Source: a virus (Duplodnaviria; Heunggongvirae; Uroviricota; Caudoviricetes). Taken from it: a DNA stretch of 64,000 nt. The DNA is taken from the IMG/VR virus record IMGVR_UViG_3300014205_000001, positions 253,413 to 317,412 of that record; one strand, written 5' to 3'. The position numbers and the translations under genes are program-made. The notes beneath the pieces are model-generated. The model saw only the letters and a list, made by a program, of their open reading frames with translations, was not told the DNA's origin and searched no databases. Position 1 is the stretch's first letter, and each line of letters opens with the position of its first letter. Shown in pieces: positions 7,033-53,920 of this stretch.

Positions 7033-7338
7033 ATGATAATTACTGATAAAAACTTTGAAAATCTTATTGCGAATAACAACGTAGTAATGAAATTAGGTGC
7101 AGTTTGGTGTGGACCTTGCCGCCAATTAGACCCCATCATTAAAAAAATGGAAGCTGAAGAAAACAAATTTATTGTAGGCAGCGTTGATATTGATGAAAAT
7201 TCTGTGATCTCAACTCGTTATGGAATTAGAAATATTCCCACAATTTTATTTTTTAAAGAAGGTCAATTAGTTGACAAAATTGTAGGCAATGTATCTGAGA
7301 TTCAGATACGTGAAAAAATTACAACAGCATTAAGCTAA
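7033..7338 (+). CDS. trx: thioredoxin
   Basis: WCGPC active site (AVWCGPCRQL). About 100 aa with thioredoxin fold spacing. Confidence 0.85.
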   Translation: MIITDKNFENLIANNNVVMKLGAVWCGPCRQLDPIIKKMEAEENKFIVGSVDIDENSVISTRYGIRNIPTILFFKEGQLVDKIVGNVSEIQIREKITTALS

Positions 7339-8240
7339 TGGATTACTTTACAAAATCTTTATTCAATTATAATAAACCGTTAATGTTTTTAACGAAACCG
7401 ACATACGTCATTTCGAATATGTTGAATGAAGATGGTAGTACAATGGTACCTCGTTTTCGTTTAAAGAACACAGATATTTTTGATGATTTTCCTTCCAATA
7501 CTGATATGAAGTTTAATCCTGAATTGATTAAACTTGCAATTACGTACGGAATGATTTTACAAATTGATTATAAAGGTGAAGCAGATGATACTCCGGGTGG
7601 ACATACACGTACAATTTATCCCATGGTCTTTGGTTACGGTAAAGAACAACAACCTTTGATTCGTGGATTTCATTTAAATGGTTGGAGTTCAAGTCAAGGT
7701 GGTGAATTAGATAAAACATGGAGAATGTTTCGTGGTGATCGTATTGAAAAAATGGTTTTTACTGGTGCTTTTTATCGTTTAGCTCCCGATGGTTACAATC
7801 CTGATGGAGATAAAGGTATACAACGTATTGTAAAACAAGCTGATTTTGATGAAATTCGTCGTAATCAAACTAAATTAATCAACACGCAACAAATCGATGT
7901 CTTAGATAGAGTTGTACTGAATAAAGTACGTACAATTGAAGCAGAAGACATGAAATTTACCTTAAAATTAAGCAATCCTTTTGCAGGTGATGTGATACCT
8001 AAGAAAGATGCAAAAAATATACGATTAACAATTGCTAAACCTTTAACAGGGCACGGACCTTACATTGTTGTAATTGGAACTAGTATTGGTAGAAATAATA
8101 CTTTCAAATTAAAATTGAATGGTCATGATTCAGGTTCATTTAGAGTAGTAAAATGGATGATGGCAGATAAGTTATCACAAGGTGCAGTTGATAATCAACA
8201 AGAATTTAAAGCTTACATGTTTAAACGTGCACGATTATAA
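7338..8240 (+). CDS. hypothetical protein
   Basis: 300-aa ORF, ATG overlaps trx stop. Confidence 0.45.
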   Translation: MDYFTKSLFNYNKPLMFLTKPTYVISNMLNEDGSTMVPRFRLKNTDIFDDFPSNTDMKFNPELIKLAITYGMILQIDYKGEADDTPGGHTRTIYPMVFGYGKEQQPLIRGFHLNGWSSSQGGELDKTWRMFRGDRIEKMVFTGAFYRLAPDGYNPDGDKGIQRIVKQADFDEIRRNQTKLINTQQIDVLDRVVLNKVRTIEAEDMKFTLKLSNPFAGDVIPKKDAKNIRLTIAKPLTGHGPYIVVIGTSIGRNNTFKLKLNGHDSGSFRVVKWMMADKLSQGAVDNQQEFKAYMFKRARL

Positions 8241-8692
8241 TGGAATTTGATGAATATAAAAAACAATTTGATGAATCTTTTGCTCAAGAAACACCTGAAG
8301 AATTTGTACAAAAAATGGAAGCACTAGGTTACAACTTTATTGATATGAAAACATATACATTTGAAAAAAACGAAAACGGCAAATGGTTTGTAGTACTGCC
8401 TGAGTTCTTGGAAATTTATCCAGGTCACGAAGGTGAACTTCAAATGGTCTTTGGTGCAGATACTATGTTAGACATCATGGCACAAGGCGAAAATATCGTA
8501 CATCTTACTTTAAGTTTACAAGAATTTGAAGGTTGCAATGTATTAAATAAAATGCATAATACACCTGATGTTGGTGGTGCAATGTATATGATGCCTAAAT
8601 ATCAAGGCTTTGAATACAATTTAGAAATGTGGTTATGTGGAGTTACTGAATTTGTTTTCGGTCACATGCCAGAAAAAATTTACTTAAAATAA
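8240..8692 (+). CDS. hypothetical protein
   Basis: 150-aa ORF. Confidence 0.45.
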   Translation: MEFDEYKKQFDESFAQETPEEFVQKMEALGYNFIDMKTYTFEKNENGKWFVVLPEFLEIYPGHEGELQMVFGADTMLDIMAQGENIVHLTLSLQEFEGCNVLNKMHNTPDVGGAMYMMPKYQGFEYNLEMWLCGVTEFVFGHMPEKIYLK

Positions 8693-8708
8693 AAACAACA
8701 AAAATATT

Positions 8709-8996
8709 ATGATTATCATCGTTTATAACACAGACAATTCAAATACAATTACAGGCGTATACAATACTGATTGTGTCAAACCTATTGCTGAATTAGAAGC
8801 AGAATACAAATTGTATTTAGAAGGAATTATTAGTTTAAGTTACGATTATATGGATAATGATCCGAATGATAATATTATTCGTAACAACTTATTAGCAACA
8901 ATGTGCGTAGGTATTACTTTTAATTCATGGTTCGTTCAAACATATCAACCTACAATTGAGACTTTTCAAATTATTACTGACCCTGTAAAAATCTAA
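8709..8996 (+). CDS. hypothetical protein
   Basis: 95-aa ORF. Confidence 0.35.
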   Translation: MIIIVYNTDNSNTITGVYNTDCVKPIAELEAEYKLYLEGIISLSYDYMDNDPNDNIIRNNLLATMCVGITFNSWFVQTYQPTIETFQIITDPVKI

Positions 8997-21307: not shown

Positions 21308-22663
21308 ATGAATAAAGAAGAAATATTTAGTCAGTTCGTATTAGACAGAGATAAAGAACAACTGTCACCAGCTGAAATAAAAATGTTAGACGCCTTATCT
21401 CTCGAAGAAGTTAAGGAATGTTTAGATCAATCCAGTAAACAGAAATATTACAATCAATCCTTAGACTTAGGTCGTAAATTAGCCCTCGTTTGCGTATATG
21501 GTGCGTTTGGTAATAATCACTTTGTAATTTCAACAAAAGAAATTGCGGGTGCAATTACAGCGATGGGTCGTGATACTATTAAATATATGGACACGATCAA
21601 TGAAACATATTGGTACGAATACTGGCATGAAGATACTGAGTTACACGAACACTTAGGTATTAAAACAGAAGACGTGAAAAAATTAGACGCTGCATGGATT
21701 CATCGTGAAACATTATCAGAATATGATGGTGAACCCACACAAGATGAAATTGATGAAGGTACTTATCAACGTAAATTTCCAGTTTCTATTTATATAGATA
21801 CTGACTCATTATTTGTGAGTTTTGATTATGGAATGAAATCCTGTAATTATCAAGGTAAGAAAGAAGATTTTGTATTGAAATGCGCAAAGTTTCGTTTGGA
21901 ACCTTTATTCAAACGTAAATTAGATACGTACGCTAAAAAATATGGTGTACCAAATATTCAAGATTTTGAATTAGAAAATATTAACGAATCCATTTTATTC
22001 GTATCCAAGAAAAAATATATTAAGCATACAGTATGGGAGGACGGTACAGTATTCCCACGTCTACAACAAGTAGTTTCCAAGGGTGTAAATTTAGTTCAAC
22101 GTGGTACTCCTAAATTTGCTAAACAAAAAATCATGGAGATTATCCATTACTTGTTTGATAACAGCGAAACATATAATATCAAGGACTTATTAAAATTCAT
22201 TCGTGATTTAAAGAAAGAATTTGAAATGCAAAATGTGGATGATATATGTCCAAGTTCAAATTTAAATATGTACTTGAGTCAAGGTAAAGTATTAGTGGAT
22301 GGTGTACTTGTGGACAGCCCAGGTATCTTAAACGATAAAACAGATTTAGTATTTGCGAAGGGTACATATTTTACAGTGAAGGCAGCAGGGTTGTATAATT
22401 TTATGTTACATAATAATCCAGAATGGATGAATGATTACGAAATTGTAAAACCTGGAACGAAAATTAAAGTATATCCCACAACACACGAAAAGAATAATAA
22501 ATTTGCGTATCCGATTGGACAATATCCTAAGGAATTTGCACCACCGATTGATTACGATGAATTGTTTGAAAAAACAATTTTGGATGGTGTGAATTATTAT
22601 ATTGAGGCATTGAATTTGCCTAAATTAAATAAACGTTTAAAAGTAGTAATGTCTTTATTTTAA
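21308..22663 (+). CDS. family-B DNA polymerase, C-terminal portion only (motif B, motif C, thumb)
   Basis: KLALVCVYGAFGN ~ T4/RB69 KxxxNSxYG motif B. YIDTDSLFV ~ YGDTDS motif C. KKKYIKH ~ KKRY. No exonuclease or motif A (DxxSLYPS) in or upstream of the ORF. Confidence 0.7.
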   Translation: MNKEEIFSQFVLDRDKEQLSPAEIKMLDALSLEEVKECLDQSSKQKYYNQSLDLGRKLALVCVYGAFGNNHFVISTKEIAGAITAMGRDTIKYMDTINETYWYEYWHEDTELHEHLGIKTEDVKKLDAAWIHRETLSEYDGEPTQDEIDEGTYQRKFPVSIYIDTDSLFVSFDYGMKSCNYQGKKEDFVLKCAKFRLEPLFKRKLDTYAKKYGVPNIQDFELENINESILFVSKKKYIKHTVWEDGTVFPRLQQVVSKGVNLVQRGTPKFAKQKIMEIIHYLFDNSETYNIKDLLKFIRDLKKEFEMQNVDDICPSSNLNMYLSQGKVLVDGVLVDSPGILNDKTDLVFAKGTYFTVKAAGLYNFMLHNNPEWMNDYEIVKPGTKIKVYPTTHEKNNKFAYPIGQYPKEFAPPIDYDELFEKTILDGVNYYIEALNLPKLNKRLKVVMSLF

Positions 22664-23985: not shown

Positions 23986-24259
23986 AGACCAAGTCTTACA
24001 TATAAATAATTTTAAAGATTATACTCATAATCAAATAACAGAAATGTTGAAAATCTTACAGATGGAAGTCAAAACATTGCGACATAGTCGTGATTATGAA
24101 ATTGAATCATTAAAGGATTTAATTCAAAAATTAGAATCGAAAACAACTCATCAGACAGAAGAAATTGAAAAATTACGCAAAAACAGTTTAACTTATTTAC
24201 AATTGCTGGAAAAACCACTAACTCTTAAAGAACGGGTGTTGGGTAAAAAAATTATCTAA
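23975..24259 (+). CDS. hypothetical coiled-coil protein
   Basis: 94-aa ORF. Confidence 0.4.
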   Translation: MMNKDQVLHINNFKDYTHNQITEMLKILQMEVKTLRHSRDYEIESLKDLIQKLESKTTHQTEEIEKLRKNSLTYLQLLEKPLTLKERVLGKKII

Positions 24260-24277
24260 ACTAATATATAAAAGGTC

Positions 24278-24838
24278 ATGATAACATCAATTGATCAGTT
24301 TAGAATCTTCGAAAATCAAAATCAAAAATTTTACATTTATGTAGGTCACGGTTCGGGCGAAGGTGTCGTTGAATTTTGGCCCGGTCATGAATTTTGGAAC
24401 CATGATGCAAATAAATCATGTCCCATGTCATTTGACATTCTAAATCCATTACACAAATATTCAATGGGAAAGGACAGATTTCCTATGACAATGAATATTG
24501 AACAAATTAGAGATGTATTATCTCGTGATTTTCAGTATTGTGAAGTCATTACAGCTGATGAAATTCCTAAATATTGTAAAAGATATGAACCTCAACCTAA
24601 AGAAATAAATTGGGTTAATATCCGAGCATGTTATCCAGCCATAAAACAATTTATAAAATTAGATGAACGTGATTGGCGAACTTTTGTGAAGGATTTTGAA
24701 CAACAGATCATCCAAAAACGAATTCAAAATGTAGATATGAAAGTATTATGTGAGACTTTCTTTTATAGTTTACAGACATTTAAAATGTTCTATTACCGTG
24801 ATTTGTGTGAAGTTATAGACAATCAATTTAAGCCTTAG
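24278..24838 (+). CDS. hypothetical protein
   Basis: 186-aa ORF. Confidence 0.45.
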   Translation: MITSIDQFRIFENQNQKFYIYVGHGSGEGVVEFWPGHEFWNHDANKSCPMSFDILNPLHKYSMGKDRFPMTMNIEQIRDVLSRDFQYCEVITADEIPKYCKRYEPQPKEINWVNIRACYPAIKQFIKLDERDWRTFVKDFEQQIIQKRIQNVDMKVLCETFFYSLQTFKMFYYRDLCEVIDNQFKP

Positions 24839-24883
24839 AAGACCTTAGTAAATAATATATACTGTATAATATACTGATTTACT

Positions 24884-27800
24884 ATGACAAATACCTCAAA
24901 AAAATACAATTCTATTAATGACGTAGCCGCACAATCGATGCGTAATGGTCAAAACGTTCTGGAATTACTAACAAAAATTGATCAAGCTTTAAACAGCAAT
25001 GACAGTTATGTTACTGCCAAGAATGTTGACGGTGCAGGTCAAGAAACTACTGTACAGATACCTACAATGGGATATGTAAAACAAAAATTGGACCAATTAT
25101 TTAAAATGGTTCGAATTTTAAGTGGTGTTGATGGTAACCCAGTTGCTTTACAATTAAGCGACAATGCATTCAAACGAATCGTTGTAGCTGATCTAAATTT
25201 AGAACCTAAAGCTATCCCTGCACTTGCTCCTGTTACAGTTTTTAAAGCTGACCCAAATCACTTTTTTGATTCCCTATTAAATCCTAAAATTAGTATTCAA
25301 TTAGACTTAACAGATAAAATTTCTACTGATACAAGATATATTGAAAGTAAACGTTTCATTGTTGAATTTGATCAAATCTTAACTGTTGATCCGAATACTG
25401 GTTCCGAATCCATTGCATTAACAACTGATGGTGCTTTACGTAAAGCAGAATTTGAAACTAAATATAAAGGTAAAGCAAATATCGACATGGTTGAATTTGC
25501 TACTTGGTTAGATACTCAAGGTTTAGTAAATCGTGTCGATGATACTTTATTAGATCAGGATTATTTTAGAATTGAACCTAATCGTTTACAAAAGAAAGGT
25601 AACTTTACAATTTTAAATACTGACACGGATGTTGAAAATAAAAAACTTTGGTATGTTTTAGATACATTAACTTATTACGATATTAGTGATTTATTAAATC
25701 CACCTAAAGCAGTTCAATTAAAAGTTGGTGATTTTATAAACGTAAATCCTAATGATACAAATGTAAAATCAACTACTGTTTATAAAGTAATTGAAATTTC
25801 GACAATCACTTCAGAGTTCCGTGTAAGATTCGAAGCTGTATATGGTGAAGAACCTATTCCAGTTCGTTTAGCAGCAATATCAATTTATTCAGATACAGTT
25901 AAAAACCGTACTTGTAAAATTAGTGTAGGATTCGATGAATATTGCGTTGTCTTTATTCGCCAAATTGATACTAACAATAATTTAGTTGGTTTAGATTGGA
26001 GTCCCGGTGTTGGTTTTTGGACTAACGAATTACGTTTAGATAATAGTAACGGTGCTGTATTTAGCGATTACTATACAAAAACTGTATATGATTATGGTAT
26101 TGTATTAGATGATTTAGTAGGTAAAAAAGTTCCGAATTATTATGGAGTTAAACCTAATGCTCCAGTATTAGATGCTAACAATTTTAAAGTAGTACAAATT
26201 AACGGTCACTTAACACAAACAGTAGAAGCTGAAAAAATTCGTGACTTACATAATCAAAAAAATACATTAGCAGCTGAAATTAGTCAAATTCAAACTGCAT
26301 TAGATAAACAAAATAAAATTATTCAAACAACAAGTTTTGCATCGACTGCTGATCGTAAACGTGCCGAAGATGAATTGACTTTATTAAATACAAAATTAAG
26401 TGGTAAATCTCAAAATAAATTTTCAGTAGTACAAGATATTTTATCAAGTAAAAAGAATTTAAATAAAATCGCAGCTGAATATCACGCACGTGGTTTTTTC
26501 CCGATGCCTGTTGCTGCTGAATCTACAAAAACTGTTCCACAGGAAGTAGTTCAATTTGAAATTTGGTATCGTAAACTTTCGAAATCAGGAACTGAAAATG
26601 AAATCTTAACAATTTCCGATATTGATAATAATTCAGCACGGTTAGCAAGTTCTGTTAATACAACTTCTCAAGATAATGTATCACGTCCTAAAACTGTGAA
26701 TGGTGCATTTAGTAATTGGACTAAATTTAAATCAGATGCGCGTAAACGTATTCAAGACCCAATATCAGGCGACTGGAGATGGGAAATTGAAGATGTAAGT
26801 GATGCAAATACACCTAATATTAATCAAATTGATATTGCAATTGAACCCGGTGAAGTTATTGAATTAAAAGTAAAATCATTATCTGAAGCAGGATGGCCTG
26901 AAACACCAACTGAATCGGATTTTTCTAATTCCATTCAAATTATATTTCCCGATGATTTAAATAGTGTATTAAATGAAGACGATTTCATCTTAAAAGAAGC
27001 GCAAGCTGATGATATGACAATTAAATTCGAACGTTCATTAGACGATCGTAATTTATCTTTACATTTAAATACTGGTTATCGTGTAGGCGACGTATATTAT
27101 GCTCATCGTACTCCACATATTGATTCAGGTTTTAAAGACGCTCAAGGTAACGTAATTAATTTATATGATCAGTTACTTGCAATGGTTGTAAAAATTACTT
27201 CTATTGAAGAATTAGTGAATCGTGCAAAAGGTGTATTGGAAGTATATTTAGATGAAAATGGAAATCGTATTCGTCTATTTAATGGTAGTAACTTAAATTT
27301 CAATTTAAATTTAGAAGATTATATGTCACCTACACAAATTGGTGTATCAGGTGCAGCTGTAGATTCTACATCTCGTACTTATAAAAATGATTTAATTGTT
27401 ATTCAACGTTATACATTAATTTTAAAGAACTCTGCAGAATCTGCACAATTAGGTTTATTATCTTATCGTGGTTATGGTGATGCTGCAGGTATGACTCCAT
27501 TCACAATGGCTTATGATGGTAAATATCGTTCAGCAACCAATCGTGGTATTCAAGCAATTTGGACAACTTCAGATTCTTCATTATTAACAACATCAGCAAC
27601 TGTTGACGAAAATAACGCTGGTGCATTAACAGTATTACAATCTCCTAAATATCGTGCAACACAAAAGAACAATCAATGGATTTGGTTAGTTACAAAAGAT
27701 TTAAATGGTAATTATATTTACGATTCTGATCAGGCACAAAACTCAGCAGCCAATACAGCCAATCAATCAACAAATAATGACTTATGGCAATTCACTACAG

Positions 27801-28822
27801 CAGCATTATTAAATAATGGTTCTAAAGTTCATAATACAATTACAAAACGTGATTATAATTTAGGATTTTTAACAGGAACAACTCAAGGAGCTCCTGTATT
27901 AGCAGATGGTATTGATAGCATTAGTGATTCATTAAATTGGAATGTAAGTGAAGCATATAATGCTGCATTAAATTTAGGAAGTAATGGTTACATGGCTTCA
28001 ACAATTCATCCAGTAGTTTCTGGATTTAGTTCAATTGTTGATACATCAACACAATTAGTAAAATTCTTAAAAGCAGGTGAAACAAATTTAATTTCAATTC
28101 CTATTTATATTTATGTAAAACCTTATACAGGTGCATTAGTAACTTCACAAGTTACAGGTGGTGCAGTATTTGATGATAGTAATTATCGTGGTATAAGTAC
28201 AGGTGATATGCCAGTTGTCGCAACAGCAAGTAATATTAAAAGAGTAGGTACTGTTTTACAAGTATTAATGGTTGACTCTTCTTCAAAAAATATATTTGTT
28301 GCAGGTGACCGTGTAGTATTTGATGGATTCACAGATAGTAATTTAACATCATCAACAAATAATATTAATGGTAAAGTTCTTACTGTTACATTAGTTACAG
28401 GTAACTTTATTCAAGTTAATTTTAATCCTGGTTCTTTATCAACAACAGCAGTAACAGACGCTGCAGGTGTTGTTGTTCAAGTTCATAAAAAATATAAACG
28501 TACTGCAGTACCTTCAGGTATTGGTTTACCTGTGTCTTTATCTAGTGAATATACTGGAATTGGTGCAGAATTAGAAGCATATAATGTTTTAGGTCGTGTT
28601 GGTTCCGATAATCGTGTAGTACCAAGTTATGTTGAAATTAAAACAACAACGTCAACTCCTTCACCTGCAAAACATAATAAGAAAATACGTTTCTATTTTG
28701 AAGAAGAAAATTCTGCACGACCTTTTGAAATGCAGTTACAATTTAATATAACACAGTACAAACCCGTTCAGATTCAATCTGGAGGAGGTGGTGGTGGATT
28801 TGGTGGTTTCAGTGGTTCATAA
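24884..28822 (+). CDS. large (1312 aa) putative virion structural protein
   Basis: Long ORF, Ser/Thr/Asn/Val-rich beta-type composition with one central coiled coil, Gly-rich tail QSGGGGGGFGGFSGS. Function unknown. Confidence 0.5.
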   Translation: MTNTSKKYNSINDVAAQSMRNGQNVLELLTKIDQALNSNDSYVTAKNVDGAGQETTVQIPTMGYVKQKLDQLFKMVRILSGVDGNPVALQLSDNAFKRIVVADLNLEPKAIPALAPVTVFKADPNHFFDSLLNPKISIQLDLTDKISTDTRYIESKRFIVEFDQILTVDPNTGSESIALTTDGALRKAEFETKYKGKANIDMVEFATWLDTQGLVNRVDDTLLDQDYFRIEPNRLQKKGNFTILNTDTDVENKKLWYVLDTLTYYDISDLLNPPKAVQLKVGDFINVNPNDTNVKSTTVYKVIEISTITSEFRVRFEAVYGEEPIPVRLAAISIYSDTVKNRTCKISVGFDEYCVVFIRQIDTNNNLVGLDWSPGVGFWTNELRLDNSNGAVFSDYYTKTVYDYGIVLDDLVGKKVPNYYGVKPNAPVLDANNFKVVQINGHLTQTVEAEKIRDLHNQKNTLAAEISQIQTALDKQNKIIQTTSFASTADRKRAEDELTLLNTKLSGKSQNKFSVVQDILSSKKNLNKIAAEYHARGFFPMPVAAESTKTVPQEVVQFEIWYRKLSKSGTENEILTISDIDNNSARLASSVNTTSQDNVSRPKTVNGAFSNWTKFKSDARKRIQDPISGDWRWEIEDVSDANTPNINQIDIAIEPGEVIELKVKSLSEAGWPETPTESDFSNSIQIIFPDDLNSVLNEDDFILKEAQADDMTIKFERSLDDRNLSLHLNTGYRVGDVYYAHRTPHIDSGFKDAQGNVINLYDQLLAMVVKITSIEELVNRAKGVLEVYLDENGNRIRLFNGSNLNFNLNLEDYMSPTQIGVSGAAVDSTSRTYKNDLIVIQRYTLILKNSAESAQLGLLSYRGYGDAAGMTPFTMAYDGKYRSATNRGIQAIWTTSDSSLLTTSATVDENNAGALTVLQSPKYRATQKNNQWIWLVTKDLNGNYIYDSDQAQNSAANTANQSTNNDLWQFTTAALLNNGSKVHNTITKRDYNLGFLTGTTQGAPVLADGIDSISDSLNWNVSEAYNAALNLGSNGYMASTIHPVVSGFSSIVDTSTQLVKFLKAGETNLISIPIYIYVKPYTGALVTSQVTGGAVFDDSNYRGISTGDMPVVATASNIKRVGTVLQVLMVDSSSKNIFVAGDRVVFDGFTDSNLTSSTNNINGKVLTVTLVTGNFIQVNFNPGSLSTTAVTDAAGVVVQVHKKYKRTAVPSGIGLPVSLSSEYTGIGAELEAYNVLGRVGSDNRVVPSYVEIKTTTSTPSPAKHNKKIRFYFEEENSARPFEMQLQFNITQYKPVQIQSGGGGGGFGGFSGS

Positions 28823-28951
28823 TCTTATAGTAATTCATAGTAAATTTAACTTATTGATTATCAACTAGTTAGCTTTACTATGAAAATTAAATTTTTAAGA
28901 TTCAAAAATTATGATTAATTATGTAGTATAAATTTAAAACTATATAAAATC

Positions 28952-29911
28952 ATGAAAAAATCAATCTATCTTATACTCTTCGTACTTATAAGTACTATGA
29001 GTTTTTCACAAACGTTTGTTTCAGTTGAAGGAAGTAAATATCAACTGTTAACAGCAACTAATCCAAGTGCACACGATACAATTATCACTGAAACATCCAA
29101 TTCCTATATTACATTCAGTGTAACTTTACCGGCAAATACTCAATATTCAATAAGTATTGGTGCTAATCTTATCCGAACAAAAACTTCAACAGGTGCTTCA
29201 AATGATACTATTAAAATCAAAGCCAAACCTGAATTAAGTTATTCATGGAATGTTAGTAACAATTTCCATTATCGAATTTACACAAGTAACGTGACAATCG
29301 GTCATTTTAGGGTGAAAAATAAAATAAATTTTTTAAATGTAAATTCCGGAATTTCTGGCAATACTATAAATTTCACACTTGATACTTTAAAAGGTTTGAA
29401 TTATCATATTAACAATTCAATATCGAAAAGTATTTATGAATATTCTTTTTCACAAACATCAACTCCGCCATTAAATGCTACGAATTTATCTACTCTTGTT
29501 GTTGGTCCTTTATCCATGCCAATTACTTCAAGCGGTACATATTATTTACATATTCGTGGTTACAGTTATTATCTTGATCCGAATGAAACTAATTTTGGTT
29601 TAACATTTACAGGTTGGATAACATATTCAGTAGCTGCAACCTATACACAAAGCACAGTTGGAATTTCTGAAAACACATTAAGTAATTTTAAGGTATATCC
29701 AAATCCAGCTAAGGACTTTATTACAGTGCAATACACATCAGCCAATAACATTGAAAATGTGTCACTATATAATATTGCCGGTCAGGAAATGACAACTCAG
29801 GCAGTCGAATCTATGGGTGATAACAAGGTAACCTTTAATTTGGAATCCTATCCACAAGGTATCTACTTTGCAAGGATTGGTTCAAGTACTTATAAATTCA
29901 TCAAACAATAA
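28952..29911 (+). CDS. secreted protein with type IX secretion system C-terminal sorting domain
   Basis: N-terminal signal peptide MKKSIYLILFVLISTMSFSQ. C-terminal ~80 aa (KVYPNPAKDFITVQ ... NIAGQEMTT ... GIYFARIG) match the Por_Secre_tail CTD pattern of Bacteroidetes. Confidence 0.75.
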   Translation: MKKSIYLILFVLISTMSFSQTFVSVEGSKYQLLTATNPSAHDTIITETSNSYITFSVTLPANTQYSISIGANLIRTKTSTGASNDTIKIKAKPELSYSWNVSNNFHYRIYTSNVTIGHFRVKNKINFLNVNSGISGNTINFTLDTLKGLNYHINNSISKSIYEYSFSQTSTPPLNATNLSTLVVGPLSMPITSSGTYYLHIRGYSYYLDPNETNFGLTFTGWITYSVAATYTQSTVGISENTLSNFKVYPNPAKDFITVQYTSANNIENVSLYNIAGQEMTTQAVESMGDNKVTFNLESYPQGIYFARIGSSTYKFIKQ

Positions 29912-29913
29912 GT

Positions 29914-29941
29914 AAAAGCCGGACATACATCCGGCTTTTTT
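29914..29941 (+). terminator. rho-independent terminator
   Basis: aaaagccgga/tccggctttt stem plus T-tract. Confidence 0.65.
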
Positions 29942-29963
29942 ATTCACTTTAAAAAATTTAACA

Positions 29964-30263
29964 ATGAACATTCAAGTATCAAACTGCTGCACTAAATGTC
30001 CCTTATTTAATTGGGATGGTGATAATGGGATTTGGGAATGTAAAGCCATTGATCAACAAATAGAATCTTGGGGCGTTCCACTTGAATCAGAATTACATCC
30101 AAATAATAAAATAGTATTTGAAGAATGTCCATTGAAAACAGGTCCCCTTACTATTGAATTAAATAATGAATTTCCACATATTAAAACACGGGAAGAAAAA
30201 CAACATCCCGAAATAACAAAAAGTTTGAACGAATTAAATTCAATGTTGGATAATCAAAAATAA
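29964..30263 (+). CDS. hypothetical Cys-rich small protein
   Basis: 99-aa ORF with CC..C..C and C..C pairs. Confidence 0.4.
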   Translation: MNIQVSNCCTKCPLFNWDGDNGIWECKAIDQQIESWGVPLESELHPNNKIVFEECPLKTGPLTIELNNEFPHIKTREEKQHPEITKSLNELNSMLDNQK

Positions 30264-30264
30264 T

Positions 30265-30915
30265 ATGAGCACAGAAAGAAAAATAATTACAGTTATCGAC
30301 CTGGCAAAAGATTTAGTTGAAAGGTTAGGCATTGAAGCAGCAATTGCGGAATTAAATAAACGTATCGCTGAATGGGAAGCTAAAAAAACAGGATTTGGTC
30401 CACATGATTTTCAAATTTTATGTAAAACTTCAGGTTTACAAACAGCGATACTTTTCATTCAGGAAAAATACTTAACGCAAAATCTTGCTATACCTTACAG
30501 GTTGCAAAAATATAAAGGTGTTGTTTCGGAAATTAAACGTTTATTTTCTGAATGGTTAAATCCAACCTACGGTAAAGAATTTCGTAGAATTTCGGAAGAT
30601 CAAATGAAAGTTACTTTAATGTTTCTATCATGTTTCAAATCTGAACATTACCCAAGTCTATTTGGTTACTGTGAAAGAAGTTATACATTGGATGACGATA
30701 ACTTTCAAAAATCAACAGTATTGGAAAATCCTTTCACAGTCGAATTTAAAAAATTTATTGCTAAACAAAACTTCAATGTCGAATTAACTGCAGGTATGAT
30801 CAGTTTCATTGACTGTGTGATTGAAGAAACAGTTAGTGTTGACCCAATGAATCAAACAGCTTTTGATGTTAAGGAATATCAGATTTTAGAAACTTTAAAT
30901 TACGACTTATTATAA
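30265..30915 (+). CDS. hypothetical protein
   Basis: 216-aa ORF. Confidence 0.45.
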   Translation: MSTERKIITVIDLAKDLVERLGIEAAIAELNKRIAEWEAKKTGFGPHDFQILCKTSGLQTAILFIQEKYLTQNLAIPYRLQKYKGVVSEIKRLFSEWLNPTYGKEFRRISEDQMKVTLMFLSCFKSEHYPSLFGYCERSYTLDDDNFQKSTVLENPFTVEFKKFIAKQNFNVELTAGMISFIDCVIEETVSVDPMNQTAFDVKEYQILETLNYDLL

Positions 30916-31253
30916 TGGTAAAAACAGCTTCTAAGAAACGGAAATCTAAAGACCCATTTATCCTTCATGTTGAAAAAGAAATGGATTGGAACAAAGCAAA
31001 AGTCACTGAATTAGTAAAAAATGTATTGACTATAAATATGGTCAAATGGGATTCAGATTTATTAAAGGATGATTGGACACGTGCATTTAATTATAAATGC
31101 CTTGCAGGTAGTAGTGTAAAATCAGCAATTCGTTCAGTAGTCAATAAATACTTCAAACAACATGAATTAAATTTCAATTTTACAGTTGTAGCTGACCTAT
31201 CCAATAACAGAGGTGATATTTATCACGAATACACAATAATCTTTTTAAAATGA
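30915..31253 (+). CDS. hypothetical protein
   Basis: 112-aa ORF. Confidence 0.4.
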   Translation: MVKTASKKRKSKDPFILHVEKEMDWNKAKVTELVKNVLTINMVKWDSDLLKDDWTRAFNYKCLAGSSVKSAIRSVVNKYFKQHELNFNFTVVADLSNNRGDIYHEYTIIFLK

Positions 31254-31576
31254 AAAATAATAAATGTCCATATTGCCAAGCAACTGTTGACCCAACTAAG
31301 TTCGATCAACATTTGGAAAGCTTAGGTTGTAGAATTGAAACTGAAATCAATTCCGATCCGACTTTACGTTTTAATTTACGCGAAGCCAAAATGGACTACC
31401 GAAATTTATCACATCAAGTTGATATTCAAATAGCAAATTTTAAAATTGCTTTACATCGTGCAATGCATCATAAATTTCCAACCTCTCATGGATTTGAATA
31501 TCGTAAAATTGTTGTACATCCTACACCACCTATTGGTGAACGACATATATTTCCACCACATTCAGATATAAAATAA
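31250..31576 (+). CDS. hypothetical protein
   Basis: 108-aa ORF. Confidence 0.4.
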   Translation: MKNNKCPYCQATVDPTKFDQHLESLGCRIETEINSDPTLRFNLREAKMDYRNLSHQVDIQIANFKIALHRAMHHKFPTSHGFEYRKIVVHPTPPIGERHIFPPHSDIK

Positions 31577-31604
31577 TATAAACCAAAAACAAAAAACAAA
31601 CAAC

Positions 31605-32432
31605 ATGAAAAAACAAATGCTGAGAATAGCAACAGTTGCCTTACTGGCAATATCCTTTTCATCCTGCAGTACAGAAACTGTCAAAGGAGGCGAAGAAGGT
31701 GTATTTATTAAACAACCCTATTTTTGGGGTAGTGATGGTGTCGATACGACAGACATTTTAACAGATGGTCGTGGAGTAAAATCGTGGACTACTGAATTTG
31801 AAAAATTCACAGTTACTCCTATTAATTACGAAGAAAAATTCGATAACATGGCGAGTAACGATAATACTCCTTTGGATTTTGAATCGCATTTGACTTTACA
31901 AATTTTACGCGGACGTTCACCACACCTGCTTAAATATTTCGGTAAAGAATGGTACGCAAATTCAGTGGCTCAGGTATATCGTGGAATGGTTCGTAAATAT
32001 GTAAGTCGTTACACAGCTAACGGATTAATTTCTAACGATAGTATTATCGCATTGATCGATTTACAAATGCAAAATGAATTACAAGAAAAATTGGATAAAA
32101 TGAAATTACCTGTAAAAGTAATTGTAGTAAATATTGGTAAGGCAGTTCCACCCGATGATGTATTACGTGAATCGGAAAGGACATCCGCACAGAAACAAGC
32201 CATCCTTACACAAAATGCTCGTAAAGATGCAGAGGATTCAAGGAAAGCTGCCGAAATTGCCAAAGCGAATGCGGATAAAGCTTATCGTGAGCAGATGGGA
32301 TTTTCTAATGGGGAATACTTACGGTCACAGGAATTATTGAATCAGACACTGTTAATTCAATCCGGTAAAAACATGAATGTCAGTTTCTTCATTGGTAGTA
32401 ATAACGCACAACCAGTAATCAACGCACGTTAA
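31605..32432 (+). CDS. SPFH/band-7 (prohibitin-like) domain lipoprotein
   Basis: Lipoprotein signal ...LLAISFSSC. SPFH-like core followed by Ala/Lys/Glu-rich coiled segment (AQKQAILTQNARKDAEDSRKAAEIAKANADKAYRE). Confidence 0.65.
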   Translation: MKKQMLRIATVALLAISFSSCSTETVKGGEEGVFIKQPYFWGSDGVDTTDILTDGRGVKSWTTEFEKFTVTPINYEEKFDNMASNDNTPLDFESHLTLQILRGRSPHLLKYFGKEWYANSVAQVYRGMVRKYVSRYTANGLISNDSIIALIDLQMQNELQEKLDKMKLPVKVIVVNIGKAVPPDDVLRESERTSAQKQAILTQNARKDAEDSRKAAEIAKANADKAYREQMGFSNGEYLRSQELLNQTLLIQSGKNMNVSFFIGSNNAQPVINAR

Positions 32433-32434
32433 TC

Positions 32435-32677
32435 ATGAAAAACTTAATTTGTATTTTATTAATTACAGTTTTAATATCTTGCGGACCTAGTAAAGAAGAA
32501 ATTGAACAGCGTGAAAAAGAAAAGGTCGAAGCAGCTGCAGCAGTAATCAAACCAAGTGAATATTTGAAAACAGTAGAAAGGACAAATGATTATATGATTC
32601 AAATATTAACAGTGGAAGGCAAAAAATTGGTTATTTATACAGATTTGCGCCGCGGAGTTGTAATGCAACCTTTATAA
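32435..32677 (+). CDS. small lipoprotein
   Basis: Signal peptide with lipobox LISCG. 80 aa. Confidence 0.5.
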   Translation: MKNLICILLITVLISCGPSKEEIEQREKEKVEAAAAVIKPSEYLKTVERTNDYMIQILTVEGKKLVIYTDLRRGVVMQPL

Positions 32678-32696
32678 AATAAACTTCAAAAATATC

Positions 32697-32724
32697 AAAA
32701 GCCCATCAGTAGATGGGCTTTTTT
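32697..32724 (+). terminator. rho-independent terminator
   Basis: gcccatc/gatgggc stem plus TTTTTT. Confidence 0.65.
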
Positions 32725-32766
32725 AGCGTTTATAGAATACCTTGCAAATAATATATAAATAATATT

Positions 32767-35700
32767 ATGAGCAAAGGTAGCATTTCATTAGTCCGCGCAA
32801 ATCCCCTTTTAACATCAAATGTTAAATTGGTAGTTGACACCCAATATAATCTTTATTTAGAATCGTATAATTCAAACTCAGAATTGAGTGATAAACGATT
32901 CAAAAAATATCTGATCACTAATAATTCATTTTTAAGTCAACGAATTGCATCTTTTTACAAAGATATTCCTACGGATATTGCCTTTGAAGTGCGTAATTTG
33001 ACTCAATCTGATGCAATTCAAATTGACTATGATAATCAATTTGATGATATTTATTATTCAGGTCCTCGTAACGTAGATGATACTCGATACACGGAAGAAT
33101 TTCAATACAACACATCTTTAAAATTATGTCCTGCAAATTTACCTAAATACTTCTTTATTTTTCGTATTGACGGACCTGGTGTTGACGCATTACGTAATTT
33201 AGATAATTTAACAGGCTCCAATATCGATAATATAAAAACAGATTATATTCAAAAATTTAAAGTTTGTTCAGTTTTTGATTTGACACCTAAATCTAATTTA
33301 GGAAAATTATGGAAGAAAAACTATATCGATGATGATGTACTTCCAGTATCGCCTGTAGAATTTGTAATGAAAAAATTTGAATTTTCAAAATGGAAAGGAT
33401 ATGATTATTATACAGGTGGTAGTGTTGAAAAATCGTTTATGTTAGACGATTTTATGGCAAATCAAACAACTCACTTTGAATTTGAAAAATTTATTACTGA
33501 AGGTTTTAAAAAGAATGCTGTAATATGTAGTAATATTGCTAATGTTTCGTTTTTATTCGATGATACAAATGCTAGTGTATTTTATAAATTAGGTGGAATT
33601 GCAACAGATATTCATTACTATGAAACTGACTATCCTTTTATTACTGATTGGATTCGCCAAGGTAAAATAACTGGTAGTCAGTACAATAAAGTTTATGATT
33701 CACTTTCTAATAGTAGTTACTATACCTTTAATGAACATGTACCTTATCGTCGTAAATGGACAATTAATCGTTATACAGGTTTTTATGTAGATGATATAAT
33801 TGCATTAGATCAAGTGTCACCTTACGTAACAGTACCTTTTAATATTGGTGCAGGAATCGTAATTGTGAATAATAAATTTGAAGATGGTTCATCTAATCCT
33901 AAAAGTCCTATTGTAGGTGTGTGGAATCCTAATTTACCTATCTATCTAAAAATTGCTAACAAGCATTATTTAATTGAACAACAAGGTGACGAATATTTAT
34001 TAATTTCAGATCAATTGTTTAATGGTACTTTAGATAGTATTGTTACTGCAGCACAGAAAACTGTAAAGATAGTATATGAAAATATCAAATTTAATCCCGC
34101 GTTAGCAATTCAAGTTGATGTTCCTGTATATCGTAGCACGTTAAAATATATTGATGATACATATTATACTAATTTGCAAATTACTAATTATATGGCTAAT
34201 TCAGTGTTAGTAATTAAAATTGCTGATCGTTACTATGCTTTAAAACAAGATGTTAAATTCAGTCAAACATATTATTATTTAGATACTGATGAATATATTA
34301 CATGTGATAGTGAAACTTTATATCGTAAAATAGCATTCAACGATGCTGAAACATTATCGATGCAAGTTTTGAATAAAGACACTCAGATTTCTTATTTTGA
34401 AATATTATTATTACAATTTACAACAGTAGCAGATTTTGATTTTCAACGTACGAATACTCGTTATTCCCAAATTGAAAATGAAAAATCTAATGAAGTTCCG
34501 TATCAACGTAGTTTTATACATTTATTAGATGTAAAAGATACTTCAGTTCCTATTGATTTGTACTATGAAAAATATTATAATATTTGGTTAGATTCTGCAA
34601 ATTTAAATGCTGCAGTTCCAAGTTATAGTCAATTGTTTTCAGGTACAAATCCTTATTTATTACCTTTAAATTCCGAATACGGAACAGGTGATTTATACAT
34701 GTTTGGTAATGATAGTAAGTTGACAAAAATATGGGATGTAAATCAATCCATTGCTAAATGGGGTATTCATAAATCAATTAACAATTCAAGTTATCCTTAC
34801 AAAATGAATAACAGTTTGGATGTTTCAGGTTTATTTAATTTCACGCCATCTATTTACGATGCAGTACCTAATTTACGTTCAATGAATTTAGATTATTTTT
34901 ATAGCCGTGGTTCAATTGGTGAAAACGTAATCAATCGTACGTTACTTGTACACAGTCCTGATTTCTTTGATATTGAATATTATAAAAATCCTAATTCAAA
35001 ATTAGATTTATTTGATTATTTCTTTAATATTCCATCACGATATACTTATGTTGATAATGGAGTAACAAAATTCCGTTATTACGAACATGAACGCATTTCT
35101 TATTTCAGTCAATCTGATTTAGTAAATGGACCTATGATCTTTCATAAAGGTTTATCTGCATATTTACAATATGTTGATACTGATAATCCTAACGTAGCAA
35201 AAACATACAAATATACACCTGCTGACGATTTACAAGATTATGGTTTTAGTATCTTGTTTAATACACGTTATACAGCGAATACTGCTTTACATGGTAAAGC
35301 AGGTATTGAAATTATTTTAAATAAGATTTACAAAAATCTATTAATTAATATTTACATGTATACTGATGGTTCATATTCTTGTGTTGATTATGCAAATCGT
35401 GATAATATTTACGCAATGACAAATTTAGTATTTAATACAGGTCAAATTGCTGTTACAGATACACCAACAGGAGAAAAAGTTTCAGAATTAACTACAAAAT
35501 CAATCACATTAAAAAATCTTACTAATATTTTAAACGGTACGCATTTAACATATCCTGAATTTAGTCAAGGTATACAATATACTGTTGTAGAAACAGTGAA
35601 GACATATACAGTAGCAACCATTGGTGTAACATTACAAGGAGCACAAACTAAAATACAATTTACTGTGTCGGAAGATGTTGAATTTAAAGAAGGTGATTGG

Positions 35701-36828
35701 ATTTATTTAACAAATACAGGTCAAGCTAATTTAGATAATAAAAATGTGCAGATTATTGAAAAATTAAATAATCGTACTTTTTCTTTTTACGAACAAGGAA
35801 ATTATGTAGTAAATATAATTGCACCTACAACAACATTTACCAAAGAAAAATCAATTTTACCATTTAGATTAAGTGTAATTAATCCCGACGAAATCAAAGT
35901 TAATCCGAATGTGAATACAGTTGCAGGTGATATTTCCTGTCCAGTTACTCCTACAAATAAATTCAACATTGATACTGACATTGTCATTAATATTAATAAT
36001 GAAGGTTCGGTACCTTATGTGTATGTAGATGATATTATATCGCGCCGTATAAAAATCAATCCTGAAAAAGAATTAATCTCTTATTCTGATATTGCAAAAT
36101 TAAATTCAATTTTACGTTACAGTGGACATTATGACCCAATTGTTAATAATATCACTTTATTCAAACGTACAAATTTAATTAATTATAATACACATTTAGG
36201 TACAACAGCACCCTATTTTGTAGAATCAGTGTTAGTGAACGGATTTTATTATTTAGTATTGCACTTTAAAGAAAACGTTTCAACAAATGTATTAACTACT
36301 TATTTAACAGTAGGTGATATTTTCCAAGTTATGACGACAATAAGTAATATTGATATTTTTAAATTTAAAACAGGTGAAGTTACGAAAGTTGAACCGTCAA
36401 CATATTTTAATATAGTAACACCTGGAACTAGTGGATATAAAGTTACTTTATCGAATCCGTATGTTACAAATCCATTATCAGGCATTACTTTTACAGCGAA
36501 TCCTGCATTATCTGCACCTGCCGTGATTGATTATGCTTATAATTCATTTACTCAATTCTCAGTAAAATTATTCAGCAAGGTATATAAAAATGTTGAATTT
36601 GCTTATGACTATGCACATTTTGCAACTAATCGTCACATGATTATTAGCAAAGTATATGAAGGTGTAAATCCTTTAAAAACAAGTAACGAAGTATTTAAAA
36701 CAACAAATAAATACCCAATGATTGATGAACATGGTGTAACTGAAGTGAGTCGTAACTTATTTAAAAGTAGTTGGGACCCTGAATTTTACTACAAAACTGT
36801 CAACAATAAATATAAATTAAAAACATAA
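32767..36828 (+). CDS. very large (1353 aa) putative virion protein
   Basis: Uninterrupted ORF, Tyr/Asn-rich beta composition. No recognisable catalytic motif. Confidence 0.5.
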   Translation: MSKGSISLVRANPLLTSNVKLVVDTQYNLYLESYNSNSELSDKRFKKYLITNNSFLSQRIASFYKDIPTDIAFEVRNLTQSDAIQIDYDNQFDDIYYSGPRNVDDTRYTEEFQYNTSLKLCPANLPKYFFIFRIDGPGVDALRNLDNLTGSNIDNIKTDYIQKFKVCSVFDLTPKSNLGKLWKKNYIDDDVLPVSPVEFVMKKFEFSKWKGYDYYTGGSVEKSFMLDDFMANQTTHFEFEKFITEGFKKNAVICSNIANVSFLFDDTNASVFYKLGGIATDIHYYETDYPFITDWIRQGKITGSQYNKVYDSLSNSSYYTFNEHVPYRRKWTINRYTGFYVDDIIALDQVSPYVTVPFNIGAGIVIVNNKFEDGSSNPKSPIVGVWNPNLPIYLKIANKHYLIEQQGDEYLLISDQLFNGTLDSIVTAAQKTVKIVYENIKFNPALAIQVDVPVYRSTLKYIDDTYYTNLQITNYMANSVLVIKIADRYYALKQDVKFSQTYYYLDTDEYITCDSETLYRKIAFNDAETLSMQVLNKDTQISYFEILLLQFTTVADFDFQRTNTRYSQIENEKSNEVPYQRSFIHLLDVKDTSVPIDLYYEKYYNIWLDSANLNAAVPSYSQLFSGTNPYLLPLNSEYGTGDLYMFGNDSKLTKIWDVNQSIAKWGIHKSINNSSYPYKMNNSLDVSGLFNFTPSIYDAVPNLRSMNLDYFYSRGSIGENVINRTLLVHSPDFFDIEYYKNPNSKLDLFDYFFNIPSRYTYVDNGVTKFRYYEHERISYFSQSDLVNGPMIFHKGLSAYLQYVDTDNPNVAKTYKYTPADDLQDYGFSILFNTRYTANTALHGKAGIEIILNKIYKNLLINIYMYTDGSYSCVDYANRDNIYAMTNLVFNTGQIAVTDTPTGEKVSELTTKSITLKNLTNILNGTHLTYPEFSQGIQYTVVETVKTYTVATIGVTLQGAQTKIQFTVSEDVEFKEGDWIYLTNTGQANLDNKNVQIIEKLNNRTFSFYEQGNYVVNIIAPTTTFTKEKSILPFRLSVINPDEIKVNPNVNTVAGDISCPVTPTNKFNIDTDIVININNEGSVPYVYVDDIISRRIKINPEKELISYSDIAKLNSILRYSGHYDPIVNNITLFKRTNLINYNTHLGTTAPYFVESVLVNGFYYLVLHFKENVSTNVLTTYLTVGDIFQVMTTISNIDIFKFKTGEVTKVEPSTYFNIVTPGTSGYKVTLSNPYVTNPLSGITFTANPALSAPAVIDYAYNSFTQFSVKLFSKVYKNVEFAYDYAHFATNRHMIISKVYEGVNPLKTSNEVFKTTNKYPMIDEHGVTEVSRNLFKSSWDPEFYYKTVNNKYKLKT

Positions 36829-49250: not shown

Positions 49251-49330
49251 GGAAGGTAGCGTACAAGGTGTACATCCCGCCTTGAAAGCGGGCGCGGTCT
49301 AACGACAGGGTTCGATTCCTATATCTTCCG
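49251..49330 (+). tRNA. atypical tRNA-like element (anticodon loop CTTGAAA gives UGA/Ser-type; weak T-stem)
   Basis: 7-bp acceptor GGAAGGT/ATCTTCC, D-arm GTAC/GTAC, perfect anticodon arm CCCGC-CTTGAAA-GCGGG, T-loop GTTCGATTC. Only 3 T-stem pairs. Confidence 0.35.
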
Positions 49331-49335
49331 CATTT

Positions 49336-49410
49336 GGTCCTTTAGTTTAATGGACAGAGCATGGGGATTCTACCCCCAGAGTGAGGGTTCGATTCCTTCA
49401 AGGACTACCA
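49336..49410 (+). tRNA. tRNA-Arg (anticodon TCT), CCA encoded
   Basis: Acceptor GGTCCTT/AAGGACT, anticodon arm TGGGG-ATTCTAC-CCCCA, T-arm GAGGG-TTCGATT-CCTTC, ends ACCA. Confidence 0.85.
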
Positions 49411-49507
49411 AATAAATAAGGAAGATCGACTCATCAGGCGATGGGAGTAGTTTGCTAAACTATCTGTGCATGAATTTGCACACGGGTCGGGACCGTGGTT
49501 TTCCTCT

Positions 49508-49582
49508 GCCTCTGTAGCTCAATTGGATTAGAGCACTCGCCTACGAAGCGAGAGGTTGCGCGTTCGAATCGCGTCAGAGGTA
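49508..49582 (+). tRNA. tRNA-Arg (anticodon ACG)
   Basis: Acceptor GCCTCTG/CAGAGGT, D-arm GCTC..GAGC, anticodon arm CTCGC-CTACGAA-GCGAG (identical loop to E. coli Arg-ACG), T-arm GCGCG-TTCGAAT-CGCGT. Confidence 0.85.
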
Positions 49583-49662
49583 CAGGAATATAATATGAGT
49601 TCGAGTCTCAGCAACGGAGATAGCTACCGTTAGAAGCATTTATGGTGATGCAGTTCCACTAT

Positions 49663-49735
49663 GCCTTCATAGTTCAATGGATTAGAATGTCGCGCTTCGG
49701 ACGCGATGATGTGGGTTCGAATCCTACTGAGGGTA
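49663..49735 (+). tRNA. tRNA-Arg (anticodon TCG)
   Basis: Acceptor GCCTTCA/TGAGGGT, anticodon arm TCGCG-CTTCGGA-CGCGA, T-arm GTGGG-TTCGAAT-CCTAC. Confidence 0.8.
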
Positions 49736-49745
49736 CTTTAAATTA

Positions 49746-53892: not shown

Positions 53893-53904
53893 CATATAAT
53901 TGTT
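53893..53904 (+). promoter_or_regulatory. conserved motif CATATAATTGTT (copy 5) upstream of sigma factor gene
   Basis: Exact 12-mer 17 nt before ATG 53921. Confidence 0.5.
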
Positions 53905-53920
53905 ATGTAACACATACAAA

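Follow-up and report, generated by a model that had tools for sequence, protein, structure and literature searches.

Genes for cargo of the host type IX secretion system (T9SS) have already been published for phages, as metagenomic annotations. In 2019, de Jonge et al. (Viruses) reported T9SS sorting-domain proteins, one of them fused to BACON repeats, in the gut phage 'cluster 2' (PMC6949934). Bellas et al. (2020, Nat Commun) then found that 'Cryophage' has three variable cargo genes with a T9SS C-terminal sorting domain (CTD), namely an endoglucanase, a GH39 and a PA14 gene, and proposed hijacking of the host T9SS together with a role in competition or superinfection control (PMC7468147). 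Here we describe a gene for a 319-aa protein of this kind in a stretch of 64,000 nucleotides (hereafter the window), which covers positions 253,413 to 317,412 of the IMG/VR virus record IMGVR_UViG_3300014205_000001, assigned to Caudoviricetes. An earlier prediction made from this stretch, hereafter the original prediction, had presented a phage-encoded T9SS cargo as unusual, and in this respect the 2019 and 2020 reports precede it (PMC6949934, PMC7468147). What is new is the protein family itself, in which a jumbo-phage lineage carries an apparently non-enzymatic tandem β-sandwich passenger, and the clear-cut pattern of two passenger cassettes (types A and B). Experimental work on a T9SS substrate encoded by a phage was not found in the literature, and phages are absent from the main review of T9SS effectors (PMC10202324).

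The closest described systems share some of these features with the window gene. Like Cryophage, the window phage encodes type A T9SS cargo that varies between otherwise similar phage variants, the Cryophage genes being those of a 'metagenomic island'. However, the Cryophage cargos are enzymes or PA14 proteins, whereas the window passenger is a small tandem module resembling immunoglobulin (Ig) and fibronectin type III (FN3) domains, without an enzyme or known binding family. The window phage is also a jumbo phage (~391 kb), and its two cassette types are bounded precisely by the signal peptide on one side and by the linker and CTD on the other. With cluster 2, which has crAss-BACON open reading frames (ORFs), the window shares T9SS sorting domains in phages of Bacteroidetes and β-sandwich passengers, which are of the carbohydrate-binding type in cluster 2. 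Unlike the cluster 2 genes, which lie beside the head module and carry BACON repeats, the window gene lies among replication genes, and its passenger has no BACON or other Pfam domain. Bacterial type A cargo, such as Flavobacterium johnsoniae RemA and Tannerella forsythia mirolase, has the same architecture, composed of a Sec signal peptide, a passenger and a seven-strand Ig-like CTD with YPNP and GxYF. The window protein differs from these in being phage-encoded and short, with a passenger of about 225 aa, and in having a passenger family confined to phage loci. A Gln exposed at the N-terminus after signal cleavage also occurs in phages of P. gingivalis, where Matrishin et al. (2023) described genes of unknown function with Q-rule signal peptides and read them as an adaptation to Bacteroidetes secretion (PMC10367356). 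Those phages, in contrast, are temperate phages of an oral pathogen, and the text of that paper contains no T9SS, type IX secretion or CTDs (PMC10367356).

The ORF was confirmed exactly on the plus strand, and its product contains both strings quoted in the original prediction, YPNPAKDFITVQ at aa 249-260 and GIYFARIG at aa 303-310. The claim that the C-terminal segment is a Por secretion tail held when it was searched with hidden Markov models (HMMs), as both TIGR04183 (47.8 bits against a cut-off of 23, E=1e-12) and PF18962 (48.3 bits against a cut-off of 27, E=1.3e-12) matched well above their thresholds. Model positions 1-72 of the 72 in TIGR04183 align to aa 248-319 of 319, so that the domain is complete and lies at the extreme C-terminus. 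No second CTD was found among the 255 six-frame ORFs of the window with a locally built CTD HMM, which argues that the match is specific and not compositional. Type A CTDs are characterized by the surface motifs B (YPNP), D (G-x-x-hydrophobic) and E (G-x-Y-F) (PMC10202324). The segments KVYPNPAKDFITV, NIAGQEM and QGIYFARIG of the window protein align to the same motifs in the solved structures 7pzj_A, 8glj_D and 8qb1_A, and they are invariant within the family. Through the YPNP, G-Q-x-x and G-x-Y-F motifs, a sequence search of the PDB retrieved these three CTD-bearing entries and 5uyt_A. The CTD adopts an Ig-like β-sandwich fold with structural matches to solved CTDs, and all 6 relatives tested pass TIGR04183. 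The assignment of the 319-aa protein as a type A CTD cargo is thus supported by every criterion at the sequence level, and its secretion is predicted to depend on the T9SS.

The signal peptide was called by rules (charge, hydrophobicity and cleavage-site residues), not by a trained predictor. The protein begins with MKK, has an n-region charge of +2 and a hydrophobic core of 10 residues (Kyte-Doolittle about 3), and carries S-x-S (S-F-S) at positions -3/-1 and Gln at +1, without a lipobox Cys. Gln at +1 after signal cleavage corresponds to the Bacteroidetes 'Q-rule' (PMC5837995). S17, S19 and Q20 are invariant in all family relatives, and the signal peptide is 95% identical to that of the related locus L001, with nucleotide identity continuing through it. 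These rule-based features and their conservation across the family bear out the Sec signal peptide originally proposed. The identical protein P0001, encoded on a 391,061-bp JGI contig, was called by JGI from Met16 as a 304-aa protein and thereby lost its signal peptide. However, the 15 residues before Met16 are conserved at the protein level among relatives with passengers merely 23-34% identical, and the relative P0010 has no Met at the matching position. For these reasons, the longer, 319-aa version is the true ORF. The locus L004 has a complete MKKS... start. The features of the gene and of its surroundings are collected in Table 1.

Table 1. Features of the CTD gene, its product and its surroundings, in window coordinates
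Feature	Position (nt)	Strand	Residues	Remark
1312-aa conserved protein, function not assigned	24884-28822	+		matches phrog_29329 (unknown function)
AT-rich long hairpin followed by U-tract	28831..28897	+		in the 129-nt spacer after the 1312-aa gene; RNA fold
319-aa precursor gene (signal peptide, two β-sandwich domains, type A T9SS CTD)	28952..29911	+	1-319	ATG start; stop codon included
Sec/signal peptidase I signal peptide (MKKSIYLILFVLISTMSFS)	28952..29008	+	1-19	cut predicted before Gln20 (Q-rule); rule-based features
Passenger domain 1, all-β Ig-like sandwich	29009..29320	+	20-123	most variable part of the protein; AlphaFold2 model
Passenger domain 2, FN3-like β-sandwich	29336..29638	+	129-229	conserved core
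Linker between passenger and CTD (...TYTQSTVGISENTLSNFK)	29639..29692	+	230-247	low pLDDT at aa 235-253
Type A T9SS C-terminal sorting domain	29693..29908	+	248-319	TIGR04183/PF18962 matches
Intrinsic terminator, GC-rich 10-bp stem (AAAAGCCGGA / TCCGGCTTTT) and U-run	29914..29941	+		begins 3 nt past the stop codon
1353-aa conserved protein	32767-36828	+		no Pfam or PHROG match
Four tRNA genes, Ser(tga), Arg(tct), Arg(acg), Arg(tcg)	49251-49736	+
738-aa protein with Laminin_G_3 (concanavalin A-like lectin) domain	61242-63458	-		PHROG 'virion structural protein' match

The start site and the two termini bear on an alternative in which the protein is an Ig-like decoration or fibre accessory protein of the virion, with β-sandwiches binding carbohydrate on the virion or the host and an N-terminal hydrophobic segment that is not an export signal. 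Structural proteins of phages indeed often bear Ig/FN3-like domains, and among the fold matches of the passenger are the tail-tip FN3 domains of T5 and lambda. In addition, the gene adjoins a large conserved jumbo-phage protein, and the JGI call from Met16 is without a signal peptide. We nevertheless regard this alternative as very unlikely, given that divergent members all keep a canonical signal peptidase I signal in their first 20 residues, with an invariant S-x-S before Q, and that Met16 is absent in P0010. The C-terminus matches the full-length T9SS sorting model at its extreme end and not a generic Ig family, and the protein has no match to a PHROG structural family. Moreover, its neighbours are genes of replication and nucleotide metabolism and a flexible island, and it stands alone as a gene followed by a terminator of its own. 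In virion Ig-like decoration of the type described by Fraser et al. (2006), the domain is part of a structural protein with no export signal, unlike the stand-alone window protein with its predicted cleavable signal peptide.

The DNA comparison between the window and L001, which encodes P0002, revealed the limits of the variable part. In the blastn alignment, identity of ~89% extends through the 1312-aa gene and the signal peptide and ends at 29013 (codon 21, immediately after the predicted cut). It resumes at 29654 (codon 235, in the linker) at 94%, which defines the 3' cassette breakpoint. Between the two breakpoints, 640-676 nt show no detectable DNA similarity and many indels, and at the protein level the second domain alone aligns, at 29%. 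For this pair, the 1312-aa backbone proteins are 94% identical and the CTDs 97%, against 25% for the passengers. The pair L002 (P0010) and L004 (P0006) gives closely similar values of 92%, 96% and 26%, respectively. In the other backbone pairs the 1312-aa protein is 83-84% identical and the CTD 58-72%, and the neighbouring genes are 76-94% identical over the same loci. The CTDs of P0006 and P0007 are even 100% identical, with passengers at 33%.

The passengers fall into two types, type A (the window protein, P0006, P0007 and P0009; 31-61% identity within the type) and type B (P0002, P0010 and P0011; 38-54%), with 22-26% identity between them. Both close backbone pairs carry one passenger of each type, the types cross the backbone groups, and the backbone and CTD trees agree. 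Because the passenger types are distributed against the backbone tree, while the signal peptide and CTD follow the backbone, the simplest reading is that the mature passenger (aa 21-234) is a cassette exchanged by recombination between related phages. The signal-peptide and linker-CTD segments probably serve as the recombination arms. By the same simplest reading, at least two passenger types would have been kept in the long term.

Passenger variability might also arise by mutagenic retrohoming and not by recombination, if the gene were the target of a diversity-generating retroelement (DGR). DGRs are often carried by huge phages, and the passenger is hypervariable. Even so, we give this explanation next to no credence. 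Within the 64-kb window, no part of the gene recurs as a second copy resembling a template repeat, and the variable part is not C-terminal. Its ~640 nt, with many indels and no residual DNA similarity, are also unlike the adenine-specific substitutions made by DGRs.

The N-terminal β-rich domain noted in the original prediction appears in the AlphaFold2 model as two Ig/FN3-like β-sandwiches. The model of the whole protein has a mean predicted local distance difference test score (pLDDT) of 64.7 and was built on a six-sequence alignment. In the first domain, the modelled strands (E20-E123) have a pLDDT of about 50-73, the mean pairwise identity of the family is 24%, and types A and B are not alignable. 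In the second, the core residues Y198, H200, R202, W222, T224 and Y225 are invariant in the family. The linker presumably contains the cleavage site for a PorU-type sortase. The fold of tandem β-sandwiches is like that of FN3/Ig arrays, adhesins and the FN3 domains of the T5 and lambda tail tips. The passenger has no match in Pfam, PHROGs or PADLOC, and its profile retrieved no significant sequence match from the PDB. Taken as modelled, the passenger looks like a binding module without a catalytic signature. Since it has no catalytic domain, capsule modification, one of the roles suggested originally, is unlikely. The absence of PADLOC and PHROG hits to known families of exclusion or defence proteins counts against membership of such a family and not against an exclusion function.

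The family was searched in 5.8 billion proteins, and the passenger alone in 1.84 billion cluster representatives by an exhaustive HMMER search. It consists of seven clusters (the window protein, equivalent to P0001, and P0002, P0006, P0007, P0009, P0010 and P0011), all of which carry the PF18962/TIGR04183 CTD. The passenger-only search returned the family members and P0008, which was rejected as a spurious repeat protein. No more full-length members were found in IMG/VR, the 185,579 species genomes of GTDB or the JGI metagenomes, where the matches were just generic CTDs. L008, which matches slightly past the CTD, was likewise rejected as an unrelated 519-aa CTD protein. The sole tblastn hit among phages, in LR756502.1, was a match at the CTD level and turned out to be a different protein of 186 aa with a signal peptide and a CTD. 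This protein (locus L007, 3824-4384, a huge phage; TIGR04183 46.3 bits) is of type A and unrelated to the family. A further unrelated type A CTD protein with a signal peptide, of 457 aa, is encoded in L005 (1248-2621, IMG/VR UViG_3300023059_000059; TIGR04183 50.2 bits), adjoining a 1341-aa tape-measure-like gene and a lipoprotein gene. These unrelated examples indicate that T9SS cargo genes recur in phages of Bacteroidota.

In every locus with known context, the gene is part of the same jumbo-phage backbone, directly 3' of the 1312-aa gene in L001, L002 and L003 and in a changed arrangement in L004. Its signal peptide, Q-rule site and CTD are all of the host type, and it is located in a flexible island where small genes come and go, as might be expected of a recently captured host gene that hitch-hikes neutrally without a role for the phage. 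We find this explanation very improbable. At least five related phage loci, with backbones diverging by as much as 17% in protein sequence, hold the gene intact and in a conserved position, and the dN/dS of the CTD is about 0.07-0.10. Furthermore, neither the 1.84 billion representatives nor the 185,579 species genomes yielded a close bacterial homologue of the passenger.

The selection on the CTD was compared with that on the surrounding genes. The CTD is under purifying selection, with dN/dS values of 0.067 (7 synonymous and 2 non-synonymous substitutions) and 0.096 (8 and 3), and the flanking genes have values of 0.07-0.19. The dN/dS of the passenger is not estimable, as its synonymous sites are saturated at 25-60% amino-acid identity. 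One explanation centred on the export signals is that the protein is a decoy or jammer of the T9SS, in which an abundant cargo would saturate PorV/SprA and block host cargo, such as receptor adhesins or enzymes and gliding adhesins, the passenger being mostly filler. This would accord with the signal peptide and CTD being the best conserved parts, with the purifying selection on the CTD, with a passenger of no recognisable function, and with the loss of the T9SS as a typical route to phage resistance in flavobacteria. We consider it unlikely, however, because a filler would not be expected to keep the β-sandwich core residues of the second domain, or to persist as two distinct, intact and ancient types.

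The reading that we prefer is that the phage product is exported by the host Sec pathway and then by the T9SS and acts at the surface of the infected cell, and we hold this to be fairly probable from its sequence features. According to this mechanism, the precursor would cross the inner membrane by host Sec, and signal peptidase I would cut between SFS and Q. The exposed Gln20 would probably be cyclised by a host glutaminyl cyclase. The type A CTD would then be recognised by the host T9SS through the PorV/SprA route, and a PorU-type sortase would remove it, leaving the Ig/FN3-like passenger either attached to the infected cell's surface or released from it. Type A CTDs are known to be recognised via PorV and the translocon and cleaved by PorU, with the cargo anchored or released (PMC10202324; see also PMC4804311 and PMC8545088). 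The distribution of CTDs correlates with that of the T9SS core components. At the surface, the passenger might mask or occupy receptors, causing superinfection exclusion or preventing the adsorption of progeny to infected cells and debris, or it might change adhesion. Mutations in T9SS and gliding genes are a common route to phage resistance in flavobacteria (PMC12781566; see also PMC9804748), and hence T9SS-dependent surface components matter for phage adsorption. Given this, and given a polymorphic, cassette-like passenger, surface masking, exclusion or adhesion are the most plausible functions.

A more specific proposal goes further than export, namely that the protein is a polymorphic, T9SS-displayed determinant in phage-phage competition. 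Its specificity would reside in the exchangeable two-domain Ig/FN3 cassette, traded across the signal-peptide and CTD arms, and at least two ancient types would be maintained by frequency-dependent selection. We put this forward as a possible but doubtful extension. Several points weigh against our preferred reading of export and a surface role. The hypervariability of the passenger could reflect relaxed constraint and not an arms race, and the purifying selection on the CTD is read from only 9-11 substitutions per pair. Between the more distant pairs, conservation is lower in the CTD (58-72%) than in the core genes (83-84%). The family is also rare, with seven clusters among 5.8 billion proteins and none in IMG/VR. 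Finally, the view of the passenger as a binding module and not an enzyme is weak, being drawn from a model of moderate confidence and from absent family hits.

The gene appears to be transcriptionally delimited on both sides. The region 28823-28905, upstream of the gene, folds with -19.4 kcal/mol (z = -4.35 against shuffles), and its AT-rich hairpin was also seen as an inverted match in the blastn comparison with L001; it may represent a terminator-like boundary between the 1312-aa gene and the CTD gene. The intrinsic terminator downstream folds with -14.8 kcal/mol (z = -6.6) and is the sole terminator-like site in 28600-30300. L001 and L002 have equivalent hairpins in this position, and the stem found there in L003 differs in sequence. 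A scan for sigma-70 promoters gave counts near the shuffled expectation, this promoter type being the wrong one for Bacteroidota and jumbo phages. Because its own terminator signals flank it, the CTD gene looks like an independent, moron-like unit. Llp of T5 and the Cor and Ltp lipoproteins are small phage envelope proteins that block superinfection, and they are typically moron-like genes with their own transcription signals. The window protein is like them in being a small phage-coded protein with host export signals. It has, however, no sequence or fold relation to these Sec/signal peptidase II lipoproteins of phages of Proteobacteria and Firmicutes, and its predicted route is the T9SS.

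The CTD gene stands at the edge of a flexible island, which runs to the 1353-aa gene and whose small genes are replaced or missing in relatives. Four small genes (99, 216, 112 and 108 aa; 29964-31576, plus strand) have no family match, and L002-L004 lack them or carry other genes in their place; the products of 99 and 108 aa are rich in Cys or contain CxxC. They are followed on the same strand by a Band_7/SPFH protein (PF01145, 55 bits; 31605-32432) with a lipoprotein-type N-terminus (MKKQMLRIATVALLAISFSSC followed by S), which is conserved in L001 and L002. Next to it lies an 80-aa ORF with a lipobox (MKNLICILLITVLISC followed by G; 32435-32677, plus strand). As this ORF is absent from the otherwise 87-90% identical L001, it is an inserted or flexible gene for a small predicted lipoprotein. 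Three products predicted to be targeted to the envelope, the T9SS cargo, the SPFH lipoprotein and the 80-aa lipoprotein, are thus clustered. In L002, the island instead codes for two other proteins (7113-8827, plus strand), one of 184 aa with a membrane anchor at its N-terminus and one of 385 aa with hydrophobic segments at its ends. The gene content suggests that the flexible island generally codes for envelope-associated proteins.

The location of the gene in a phage genome, as claimed originally, was confirmed by PHROG phage genes, by the neighbouring 1312-aa gene with homologues in jumbo phages only, by the 391-kb contig and by the tRNA cluster. The source is a jumbo phage of ~391 kb. The window has ~30% GC and tightly packed ORFs, and its PHROG matches include an NAD-dependent DNA ligase, the large and small subunits of ribonucleotide reductase, a DNA polymerase, a UvsW-like helicase, a sigma factor and a virion structural protein. 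The last match belongs to the 738-aa Laminin_G_3 protein, a candidate receptor-binding or fibre protein. The sigma factor is a phage RNA polymerase sigma factor (phrog_351) at 53900-54814 (plus strand). A 451-aa DNA polymerase B-like ORF at 21308-22663 (plus strand) matches the C-terminal part only of longer polymerase profiles and may represent a split polymerase.

The 1312-aa protein ends in a Gly-rich tail (GGGGGGFGGFSGS). Its homologues occur solely in jumbo or huge phages, spread over several phyla, and include those of LR745206 and LR756502 (36% identity over 81% of the protein), the Tenacibaculum phages PTm1 and PTm5, Flavobacterium MaF61, Chryseobacterium phages, the Prevotella Lak megaphages and Sphingomonas PAU (gp264). 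Megablast of window positions 24000-34000 against GenBank phages gave no match, and therefore the phage has no close cultured relative. The host is most probably a member of Bacteroidota. The original inference of a T9SS-bearing host from this phylum is reinforced by the Gln+1 Q-rule site, the ~30% GC and the relatives of the phage, which are phages of Tenacibaculum, Flavobacterium, Chryseobacterium and Prevotella along with huge metagenomic phages. The closest bacterial CTD, from a metagenome-assembled genome of Saprospiraceae at 36% identity, is not informative on the host.

If its function proves trivial, the present finding stays a routine annotation. If, on the other hand, the protein is a polymorphic surface determinant, it would be the first system of superinfection exclusion or receptor masking to rely on type IX secretion. 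The combination of a CTD with a Q-rule signal peptide also provides a practical marker for predicting the hosts of uncultured huge phages. Bacteroidota are important in the oceans, in disease in aquaculture and in the gut. The family offers a clean test case in this phylum, as the protein is small, has unmistakable export signals under purifying selection, and comes with two swappable types of passenger in phages that are otherwise nearly identical. With it, one could learn whether phages of this phylum remodel the surface of the infected cell through the T9SS, and why.

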